NCBI RefSeq assembly: GCF_016903815.1
Contig: NZ_CP069973.1
DNA: 64,000 nucleotides
Source of the DNA: Escherichia coli
GTDB lineage: Bacteria > Pseudomonadota > Gammaproteobacteria > Enterobacterales > Enterobacteriaceae
Direction: 5' to 3' (one strand)
The number at the start of each line of letters is the position of its first letter. Position 1 is the first letter of the stretch. Of this stretch, positions 3,374 through 36,591 are shown piece after piece. Both the position numbers and the translations under genes were made by a program. The notes under the pieces are model-generated. The model worked only from the letters and a program-made list of their open reading frames with translations. It did no database searches and had not been told where the DNA came from.

Positions 3374-4387
3374 TTACAGGTACATTCAGTTTCTTTAGTA
3401 AATCGGAAGTAAATAAGATACGTAGCACATATCAATATAGGTTAAACGAGATTAAGTTTTAATTATTTCGATTAGGTTTAAATTTATGTTTTTTTCCTGA
3501 TGAGTGTCAATATGTGAACAGAAAAGGAATTCCATGGTTAAGTCAATATTTACAAAAAATGAAAATATTGCTTTTTTGATAAGAAGAAAAAGACATTCAG
3601 TTTCATAAGGTTATTGGCAATATAACGTTCAATTCTTACTTGCATTTTATATTAGCCAGGAACTTTGCCCTGAGGTGTTAGGAATAGTCTTAATGTGTTG
3701 TGTAATGGACTAGTAAAAAAACAAGTTTAAATGATAAGAAATAGAATATAAAACTATCATGAGTTATAATTAAAGATGATTTTCCAATCAGTAAGGTGTT
3801 TTAATGGATTAACATGCCGCACAAAATGGTTATGGGTGTTCATCCCAATAAGTGATGAAAAATTAAACAGGTGTAAGTACGTCATCTGTCCGGTAAGCCC
3901 CCTAAGAGCCAAATTAAGTGAAGTTAAACGAAGACTGCCAGTTGTCACAGGAACGATGGCCTCTTTGCCAGGGCACTGCATTCAGTCATCTGTGCGCGTT
4001 ACTCTAACTGGCACTCGAACGTCGGCGATGGGGTTACCGGTGGATCAGGCCGTTCCTGTGGCGTAAACGTTTTTATGTCAGTACCAACAGATTTACCACA
4101 TTTATCATCTTAACCGTTTGAGTGTAAATGCAGGCTGCGTCGCAAAGGGAGGAAACTGAGTGGCGTGTTCAGTCTAAAAGAGAGTTGATGCCAGCATACA
4201 GGGCGCACCTGGTCAACAAGTCAACATTAATATAATGGAATATTCGGAGAGAAACGTCAGGCAGTTGACCTTAAATGAACAGGAAGATACATCCCCAGGA
4301 AAATTAATGCTGGTGTAATAAATACACCAACATTAATCCGGTCTGATTATTAATCAGACAAATATCGTTAATTCGTCGAATTTTGAA

Positions 4388-4528
4388 TCAACGTTTTTTC
4401 TTACGACCCTGAACGGCCTTAAAACGTGGATTAGATTTACAAATCACATATAGCCGTCCTTTTCGCTTCACAATCTGACAGTCTGGATGGCGTTCTTTTG
4501 CGGTACGCAGAGAGTTAAGGACTTTCAT
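4388..4528 (-). CDS. rpmJ2: Zinc-independent ribosomal protein L36 paralog
   Basis: 46-aa [49 protein letters not shown] read from the reverse strand; absent from the ORF track because it is short; its ATG overlaps the rpmE2 stop (ATGA). Confidence 0.85.
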
Positions 4529-4791
4529 CATGCCCCCTTTTTCGTGCTAACAAAACGACCAAAACGTTGGGTGAATCGTGCAACATTTCCTTCTGATGCC
4601 ACTGTTCTCAGCTTCCCTGTATAGAACGGGTGCGATTTAGAAGAGACATCAATTGTCACGTACGGATACGTTACGCCATCCAGCTCAATCTCACGGTCTG
4701 TTTTGATAGTCGAGCCGATTTTAAAGTACTCATCAACACTGGTGTCGTGGAACACCACAGTACGATACTCAGGATGGATATTGGGCTTCAT
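4528..4791 (-). CDS. rpmE2: Zinc-independent ribosomal protein L31 paralog
   Basis: 87-aa product [59 protein letters not shown]...; start taken at the second Met of the track ORF. Confidence 0.9.
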
Positions 4792-4802
4792 CATTTTTAC
4801 CT

Positions 4803-4820
4803 GTTATGTTATAACATAAC
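4803..4820 (-). promoter_or_regulatory. Zur box (zinc uptake regulator operator) upstream of rpmE2-rpmJ2
   Basis: Perfect 18-bp palindrome GTTATGTTATAACATAAC about 10 bp upstream of the rpmE2 start; matches the Zur operator type known for this operon. Confidence 0.75.
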
Positions 4821-5719
4821 CATAAAGATACATGCTCATCCGGATCATTTCAACACCCAATCCCTGTGACCATTTGTGGTATGTGGAATTTCGGCAACGG
4901 GGAAGTCTGGCATTGTTAGCAGCCATTGGCGACGCTCCCATAAACGCCTTGATGAGTGATGGTTTCGCTGAGAGTATGAATTTTTCGAGAATGGAGGCTA
5001 TCTCCATTTTACTGGCCGATGATTTATCGCAGTTTGATTGCCGGACAGCGTGTATTCCTCTCCCACGGATATAATAATTACTTACAAAAAAGGGAGAGGA
5101 TGCATATTTTTTAATATCACTGAAGTGAACAGTTTATTGCCGTTATTAATAGAAATGGAGAAATAAATAGGCGTATTCTACAATTGCGACAAAAACAACG
5201 ATATTAATCAGTTTATGACTGATTTGTTGTACTTTATTCTCTTTCATTGGTACTTCCTCGCTTTAAAAAAGAGTGCACTTCGTAAGTGCCCTTATATAAA
5301 TAACGAGTTTGGTCAACCAATTTTTTGACATGTATCACAAATTTGAATAGATGTATTACATCGGCTATCTTTTATTGCCCCAACGTCATTGATATATGTC
5401 GCCTGAAGTCAGTCCGGGAATGAGTCTGATCTCAAAACTGGCCCAGCCCGGGCGTTGATTGGCGCTGAGGAGCATATCGCATCTCATCATAATGTCGTAT
5501 CTCCTGGGGTGTTATACAAGATATCGTTGTTGGTGACCTGGGAGAGGAATTGAGTTCTATTAAACCGTCAACTATGCCGGATACATACTGGATTACACAG
5601 CAGGCACGCCTTACGAGAGAACGTGCCGCAGTGACGAGTTAATTATCTGAAAGAATTTGCGAGGCTGTATCGGTTACTCATTGGTTTAATAGTTTTACTC
5701 TCGGGAGAGTAATAGATAT

Positions 5720-35658: not shown

Positions 35659-36591
35659 TTAATTCTCCCGATGCAGTAAATCCTGATAGATCCCCGTTAA
35701 TATGCCATTTGGCGAAAATTGTTTTTTAATCCACTGCGTCACCTGACCCGTAGCAGAATGCTGAGTTGCGAGTAACATGCGTGAATCCTGGCGCGGATTA
35801 TGGATTTGTCGGGTAACCAGCAGGGATTGCGCCATCGCCTCACGGACCATGTAATCCGGCAAAAAACCAATCCCTTCACCTAAAATCTGGCACTGACATT
35901 TGGTGTTGAAATCTGGCACCAGAATCGACTCCTGCCCATGCAGCAACCAGCCCACTTTTTTATTAATCGTATGCGCGGTGTCCTCCACCATGATATTAGG
36001 ATAGAGACGCAGTTGGCTTTCGGCGATCGGCTCCGGCACAAAGGCTAATGGGTGATCCGGGGCGATAGCAAAAGCCCAGCGAATTGCGCCAATCTCCGTG
36101 TAATCAATGCCGCCGCCGTCCAGCAGTGTGTCGGGCGCGCCGATAGCAATATTCGCCTGATTATTAATAATCGCATCCCAGACGCCGTTATACACTTCGG
36201 TCGTCACGGTAATCTGGCAGGTTGGAAACTGCTTTTTCAGTACCTGTAATAAGCGTGCGGTGTGTTTGGGCGTATAAAGCAGTTGGTTAATACAAATGCG
36301 CACCCGTGCTTCTATACCCTGCGAAATAGTATCGATGCTGCGTTTGATGGCGTGAAAATCATTCAGCAGGTCGGTAGCTTTGCGGAAAAAATAACGCCCG
36401 GACTCCGTTAACTCAATGCTTCGGGTACTGCGAGTGAACAGCACCACATCCAGCCCTGTTTCCATTCGCTTGATGGTGTAGCTAATGGCGGAAGTGGTTA
36501 AACCCAACTCTTCTGCGGCTTTACTGAAGCTGCCAAAACGCGCAGCGGTAGTAAATGCCAACAGATTCTCTTCGGTAAAAATTGAGTTCAT
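35659..36591 (-). CDS. yahB: LysR-family transcriptional regulator
   Basis: 310-aa ORF with N-terminal LysR HTH (FTTAARFGSFSKAAEELGLTTSAISYTIKRMETGL). Confidence 0.85.
   Translation of the reverse strand: MNSIFTEENLLAFTTAARFGSFSKAAEELGLTTSAISYTIKRMETGLDVVLFTRSTRSIELTESGRYFFRKATDLLNDFHAIKRSIDTISQGIEARVRICINQLLYTPKHTARLLQVLKKQFPTCQITVTTEVYNGVWDAIINNQANIAIGAPDTLLDGGGIDYTEIGAIRWAFAIAPDHPLAFVPEPIAESQLRLYPNIMVEDTAHTINKKVGWLLHGQESILVPDFNTKCQCQILGEGIGFLPDYMVREAMAQSLLVTRQIHNPRQDSRMLLATQHSATGQVTQWIKKQFSPNGILTGIYQDLLHREN

Follow-up and report, generated by a model that had tools for sequence, protein, structure and literature searches.

The known Zur-repressed ykgM-ykgO (rpmE2-rpmJ2) operon of Escherichia coli: palindromic operator, gene junction and flanking sequence

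The ykgM-ykgO operon of Escherichia coli K-12 and its Zur operator were reportedly described by Panina in 2003. The structure, thermodynamics and genetics of this operon and of its Zur box have already been characterised, and Zur binding, derepression and ribosome incorporation have been shown experimentally by others on a sequence identical to the one analyzed here. In gel shift experiments, the L31p operator had the highest Zur affinity of the regulon (Kd-app 0.025e-18 M^2); Zur protected ~30 bp at this operator and repressed 560-fold in vivo (PMC4219657). A chromosomal ykgM-lacZ fusion was silent; either the zur::kan mutation or the zinc chelator TPEN raised its expression almost 1000-fold, and the amount of YkgO protein increased with EDTA (PMC7297116). 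L31p was also found to repress L31 synthesis (PMC9825181). When E. coli Nissle was exposed to calprotectin, ykgM was induced ~2500-fold and ykgO ~1000-fold, and engineered probiotics already make use of the ykgMO promoter as a calprotectin/zinc biosensor (PMC10410751). Inclusion of the whole intergenic region in the ykgMO reporter reportedly cut the background by 68% (PMC10410751).

We analyzed a 64,000-nt stretch of the E. coli contig NZ_CP069973.1 (the window). The locus studied here is almost certainly the E. coli ykgM-ykgO (rpmE2-rpmJ2) operon, a Zur-repressed transcription unit of two genes on the minus strand. The operon with its Zur box is already known, textbook biology, and nothing biologically new is claimed for it. 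A first-pass annotation had proposed this unit from the letters alone, and the results on ykgMO confirm that a real regulatory unit can be recognized from sequence by a reader without tools. The features of the locus, in the order of transcription, are:

4848..4853, minus strand: -35-like hexamer TTGAAA of the candidate ykgM promoter, predicted by consensus scan
4825..4830, minus strand: -10-like hexamer TATCTT, 4 nt upstream of the palindrome, predicted by consensus scan
4802..4821, no strand assigned: Zur operator, a perfect 18-bp palindrome GTTATGTTATAACATAAC (4803-4820) within a 20-bp two-dimer site, assigned by pattern match, conservation and K-12 identity
4799..4802, minus strand: Shine-Dalgarno sequence AGGT of ykgM, abutting the palindrome, 7 nt from the ATG at 4791, read from the sequence
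4528..4791, minus strand: ykgM / rpmE2, type B (zinc-free) 50S ribosomal protein L31, 87 aa, without Cys, assigned by profiles, RefSeq and structure 6i7v
4533..4539, minus strand: Shine-Dalgarno-like AAGGGGG in the last ykgM codons, which may serve ykgO, read from the sequence
4388..4528, minus strand: ykgO / rpmJ2, type B 50S ribosomal protein L36, 46 aa, assigned by profiles, RefSeq and structure 6i7v
4301..4359, minus strand: two strong hairpins downstream of ykgO, obtained by RNA folding

The coordinates of ykgM (4528-4791) and ykgO (4388-4528) are those of the RefSeq annotation. A 601-nt stretch of the locus had matches of 100% identity in several E. coli chromosomes, and RefSeq labels the genes there ykgM, ykgO and ykgL. 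The ykgMO locus was found in 5061 of 5426 complete E. coli genomes, and the remaining 365/5426 gave no match. The 481-nt ykgMO locus shared 99.2% identity with K-12-derived episomes, and the 65-nt promoter/operator region (4792-4856) was 100% identical to that of a K-12 MG1655 derivative. Therefore, the published K-12 experiments hold for the promoter/operator sequence of the window. We also considered ykgMO as a plasmid-borne, mobile zinc-sparing module. This was rejected because the 16 'plasmid' matches were either K-12 F-prime-sized episomes (~230 kb) or records of chromosome size that had been deposited as plasmids. Neither rpmE and rpmJ, the primary copies, nor further L31 and L36 copies were found in the 64-kb window.

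The ykgM reading frame, which runs to 4528, encodes 87 aa from the second of two in-frame ATG codons and 88 aa from the first. YkgM scored 87.1 bits against the Pfam family Ribosomal_L31 (PF01197) and 122.8 bits against the NCBIfam family NF002462 'type B L31' (cut-off 86), while its scores against the type A equivalogs NF000612 and NF001809 stayed under their cut-offs of 70. In the E. coli ribosome structure 6i7v it corresponds to chain D7 ('L31 type B'), to which it is identical over residues 1-68. YkgO scored 68.5 bits against Ribosomal_L36 (PF00444) and 90.9 bits against NF002021 'type B L36' (cut-off 70), and its sequence is that of chain C5 in 6i7v ('L36 2'). The type B profile scores over the cut-offs, the RefSeq names and the 6i7v chains bear out the rpmE2 and rpmJ2 identities given in the first-pass annotation. 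The same annotation had pointed out that rpmJ2 was absent from the list of open reading frames; the gene was missed because its 46-aa product falls under the 60-aa cut-off of that list.

The zinc ligands were compared by alignment to the E. coli L31 and L36 sequences, each of which was a 100% PDB match. YkgM has other residues at each of the four Cys ligand positions of L31 (C16T, C18V, C37S, and C40S). When YkgO was compared with the ligands of E. coli L36, C11 was found to be replaced by H14 and H33 by F36, with C14 and C27 kept as C17 and C30, and with an insertion of three residues. Because YkgO retains C17 and C30 and has a His at the first ligand position, the term 'zinc-free' suits it less well than YkgM; judged from this alignment, its CCCH zinc-ligand set is incomplete but not absent. 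Both proteins can thus be regarded as paralogs of zinc-ribbon ribosomal proteins, as had been claimed, YkgM being without all four Cys ligands and YkgO having two of the four.

The central claim of the first-pass annotation was that a perfect palindrome immediately upstream of rpmE2 is a Zur box. The palindrome is present: GTTATGTTATAACATAAC forms a perfect 9+9 inverted repeat at 4803-4820 and is the sole copy within the window. Its end lies 11 nt from the annotated ykgM ATG (4791-4789) and 8 nt from the upstream in-frame ATG (4794-4792). Direct reading of 4803-4820 (G-TTA-T-G-TT-A*T-AA-C-A-TAA-C) against the published operator skeleton RxxxYRxxR*YxxYRxxxY (PMC4219657) gave agreement at 8/8 specified positions. 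The motif scan that had been suggested as a check was performed with the structure-based two-dimer Zur pattern TGWNAYRWTATAWYRTNWCA, which agreed with the sequence at 4802-4821 in 19 of 20 positions. When up to two mismatches were allowed, a scan of the 64 kb with TGWNAYRWTATAWYRTNWCA returned this one site only, compared to 0.17 sites expected. For GTTATGTTATAACATAAC within three mismatches, 0.01 occurrences are expected by chance. Neither the motif scan nor the palindrome scan detected a second Zur box within the 64-kb window. A second palindrome, GATTATTAATAATC at 36159-36172, was rejected because it lies inside yahB and is at chance level. The 23-bp 11-N-11 consensus of Panina was also tried; aligned by eye, it agreed at only ~15/22 positions in either register, and the pattern of Gilston was the better one. 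The even, 9+9 symmetry of the ykgM box accounts for this imperfect fit to the 11-N-11 consensus.

The symmetry of the box has to be weighed with care. Perfect 18-bp palindromes of any sequence are expected at 0.32 per dinucleotide-shuffled 64-kb window, so that palindromy by itself is weak evidence. We therefore rejected it as evidence for Zur when taken alone and placed the weight on the sequence match, the position and the conservation. The same expectation of 0.32 would allow the palindrome to be a product of chance, and the boxes of the Fur family are alike among themselves, which would allow it to be the operator of Fur or of another protein that binds AT-rich palindromes, with Zur control being indirect. 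The probability of either is negligible. The sequence agrees with the Zur pattern at 19/20 positions in the only such site of the window, and, of all operators in the regulon, purified Zur has its highest affinity for the L31p operator of K-12, which is identical to this one. A chance origin is further contradicted by the sharp island of conservation that the box forms across 81 species. Control by another regulator is in effect refuted by the gel shifts and the results from zur mutants in the literature, which were obtained on identical sequence. Derepression at zinc starvation or in a zur mutant, on which the first-pass annotation had made its reading depend, is thus already on record for the identical K-12 sequence and amounts to almost 1000-fold (PMC7297116).

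The conservation of the locus was determined by a scan of species-representative genomes, which yielded 80 loci from ~30 genera, ranging from Escherichia to Serratia, Photorhabdus, Vibrio, and Pseudoalteromonas. The box-anchored comparison and the counts at the gene junction cover 81 species/loci. In most of the 81 species, a box with 0-3 mismatches to the E. coli palindrome was found 11-14 nt upstream of the L31B start. The mean information content over the 18-bp box was 1.59 bits per column, compared to 0.31 upstream and 0.35 downstream (81 species). Secondary peaks of conservation were observed on the upstream side, at a TTG ~40 nt from the box centre and at a partly conserved TA...T directly before the box. 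The ~300-nt intergenic region upstream of the ykgM promoter (4830-5145) showed no cross-genus conservation. One of the loci (L057, CACSKA010000001.1) is titled 'Chryseobacterium sp. 18061' and carries an Enterobacteriaceae-type L31B-L36B locus. Its box variant GTTATGTTATACTATAAC is shared with the locus L051 ('Citrobacter sp. 18056') from the same study, and L057 is probably a mislabelled or contaminated assembly.

A promoter for ykgM was predicted by a consensus scan as TTGAAA-17-TATCTT at 4853-4825 on the minus strand, with 9/12 consensus positions. The TTG of the -35-like hexamer has the spacing from the box that is conserved in the 81-species comparison, where no other upstream feature was fully conserved, and the TA...T pattern of the -10-like hexamer recurs in part. 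The -10 hexamer ends 4 nt before the palindrome, so that the expected transcription start (~7 nt downstream) would be located inside the Zur box. Direct reading of the sequence revealed an alternative, extended -10-like element TGTTATAAC at 4816-4808, within the Zur box, and there are thus two -10 candidates. The published Zur footprint spans ~30 bp, and bound Zur may overlap the core promoter or the transcription start, depending on where transcription begins. On the minus strand, the palindrome is followed by AGGT (4802-4799), AAAA, and ATGATG (4794-4789).

The transcribed half of the palindrome could have a second role besides that of an operator, namely as a 5'-leader hairpin that controls the translation or the stability of the mRNA, for instance as the site of autoregulation by L31B. 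A 7-bp hairpin is possible beside the Shine-Dalgarno sequence, and L31 is known to autoregulate via a hairpin in its own leader (PMC7297116, PMC9825181). However, the fold was no better than those of shuffled sequences (z = -1.54; 13/200 shuffles as good) and left the Shine-Dalgarno sequence free. Moreover, L31 provided in trans was without effect on ykgM-lacZ (PMC7297116), and if transcription starts within the box, the palindrome is transcribed only in part. We consider such a leader element very unlikely, and the hairpin was rejected because it is not significant and leaves the Shine-Dalgarno sequence unmasked. No Rfam family reached its gathering score in a scan of the whole window; therefore, the window contains no known leader or sRNA.

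At the junction of the two genes, the sequence reads GCATGATGAAA. The ykgM stop codon TGA occupies 4530-4528 and the annotated ykgO ATG 4528-4526; one base (4528) is common to both, and the motif formed is TGATG. The first-pass annotation had placed the start of rpmJ2, a gene of 46 codons, on the last base of the rpmE2 stop, which agrees with the annotated start at 4528. It had further described the overlap as 'ATGA'. The stop/start overlap is real, but the annotated start gives TGATG, and ATGA belongs to the other in-frame ATG at 4531-4529, which results in a four-base overlap and a 47-aa ORF ending at 4388. With the sequence ATGATGA, both overlaps are present. The tandem ATGATGAA(G/A) is present at both gene starts (4789-4794 and 4526-4531, minus strand). 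In each ATGATG pair, the second ATG is the more likely start according to RefSeq and to the L31 and L36 profiles, which begin at the second Met.

The L36B gene was found downstream of the L31B gene in 81/81 loci. The gap between the L31B stop and the L36B start, measured from the family-consistent Met, was -4 nt in one species, -1 in 17, 0 to +5 in 55, and at least 9 in 8 of the 81 species. An overlap of stop and start thus occurs in only 18/81 species, whereas the gap lies between -4 and +5 nt in 73/81. The conserved feature is therefore the tight juxtaposition of the genes and not their overlap. Terminating ribosomes commonly re-initiate over distances of -4 to +5 nt. In 79/81 species, the 16 nt preceding the L36B start contained a Shine-Dalgarno-like 4-mer. 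In Brenneria sp. 4F2, the spacer between the L31B and L36B genes is 197 nt long, compared to 14-17 nt in its relatives, and looks like the result of an insertion that splits the pair.

From these features, we infer that translational coupling from ykgM to ykgO, which the first-pass annotation had deduced from the overlap, is plausible. RNA folding of the junction detected no significant structure (z = +1.44), so that coupling by unmasking is unlikely, and RNA structure at the junction was dismissed as a coupling mechanism. The unstructured junction and the Shine-Dalgarno-like AAGGGGG at 4539-4533 mean that independent initiation at ykgO is also possible. The one-base overlap would then be incidental tight packing of the genes rather than a device for coupling. 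This reading has to be taken seriously, although we lean against it. It agrees with the occurrence of similar Shine-Dalgarno-like motifs in nearly all species compared, with a junction that has no significant structure for upstream ribosomes to open, and with the gap of 2-3 nt that replaces the overlap in most species. Furthermore, no experiment on translational coupling between ykgM and ykgO was found in the literature searched. It is less easily reconciled with a gap that is kept at a common re-initiation distance in 73/81 species. In addition, L31B and L36B are required in equal amounts per ribosome, and the ykgM and ykgO transcripts are induced together (PMC10410751). Coupled translation remains our preferred reading, and ykgO could possibly be started by re-initiation of terminating ribosomes, by initiation directed by the Shine-Dalgarno-like element, or by both. 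A more far-reaching proposal is that the tandem ATGATG, the one-base overlap and the internal Shine-Dalgarno-like element together set the L31B:L36B ratio by termination-reinitiation. Another is that the transcribed operator half acts as an RNA element on the leader. We regard both proposals as improbable. If the coupling at the junction or the leader RNA element were true, a post-transcriptional layer would be placed on top of a system that has so far been described only as Zur-controlled transcription.

RNA folding of the sequence after ykgO gave -37.5 kcal/mol (z = -8.18; 0/200 shuffles as good), with three hairpins in 4301-4393 on the minus strand, directly past the ykgO stop. The last of these hairpins, at 4339-4301, ends in AUUAAUUUU. 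According to this fold, it is likely an intrinsic terminator, located between the convergent genes ykgO and ykgL, and the hairpins at 4301-4393 probably act as a bidirectional terminator for both genes. A simple consensus terminator scan found nothing downstream of ykgO; it missed the hairpins because of its rules on G+C content and on the position of the T-run. A terminator is drawn after ykgO in Fig. 2A of PMC7297116.

In the identical RefSeq record, ykgL (4128-4353, plus strand), whose orientation is convergent to that of ykgO, carries a frameshift annotation (pseudogene), and the ykgL region of the window contains only a 35-aa ORF at 4128-4235. On the same strand as ykgM and ~350 nt upstream of it, a 33-aa ORF, MKENKVQQISHKLINIVVFVAIVEYAYLFLHFY at 5146-5247 (minus strand), corresponds to the annotated small membrane protein YkgR. 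When the window was compared with the best-matching record, that of strain 7/2 (NZ_CP023820.1), the coordinate offset at yahB differed by ~777 bp from that at ykgM. The window and NZ_CP023820.1 are therefore not collinear throughout, and an indel or an IS is expected within ~5700-36600.

Taken together, the operon works as follows. In the presence of zinc, two Zn-loaded Zur dimers bind cooperatively to the palindromic operator at 4802-4821. This operator is situated between the predicted -10 element and the Shine-Dalgarno sequence, over the expected transcription start, a position from which Zur silences the ykgM promoter almost completely. When free zinc drops, Zur leaves the DNA and transcription of the operon increases several hundred- to thousand-fold. 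L31B, which is without the cysteine ligands, and L36B, with its incomplete ligand set, then take the places of the zinc-binding L31 and L36 in the ribosome. A ribosome with L31B and L36B keeps translating without that zinc, and L31B additionally represses L31 synthesis. ykgO is read from the ATG that overlaps the ykgM stop by one base, preceded by the Shine-Dalgarno-like element inside ykgM. Its translation is probably tied to that of ykgM, through re-initiation, local loading of ribosomes, or both.

Compared with the described systems, the locus is the same as K-12 ykgM-ykgO (L31p-L36p; Gilston 2014, PMC4219657; Aseev 2020, PMC7297116), with the same RefSeq gene names. It differs from K-12 only by strain-level substitutions and by its neighbourhood, as in the window strain a flavin oxidoreductase and an alpha/beta hydrolase are encoded upstream of ykgR, and ykgL is frameshifted. 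B. subtilis ytiA/rpmEB, Mycobacterium altRP and Neisseria rpmE2 share the logic of the operon, that is, a zinc-free L31 paralog, often together with an L36 paralog, which is repressed by Zur and swapped into ribosomes at low zinc. To our knowledge, there is no L36 paralog partner in the unit of ytiA/rpmEB in B. subtilis. The Zur operators of Firmicutes are 9-1-9 boxes, which are unlike the ykgM box in sequence and spacing (PMC4219657), and the gene content also differs. Within E. coli, the operators of znuA/znuCB, zinT and pliG share the RNNNY-based two-dimer architecture with the ykgM box (PMC4219657). With its perfect 18-bp palindrome, the ykgM box surpasses these other E. coli Zur operators in symmetry. 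The affinity of Zur for this box exceeds that for the operators of znuC or pliG by 2 to 4 orders of magnitude, and the repression is 560-fold, compared to 7- to 8-fold (PMC4219657).
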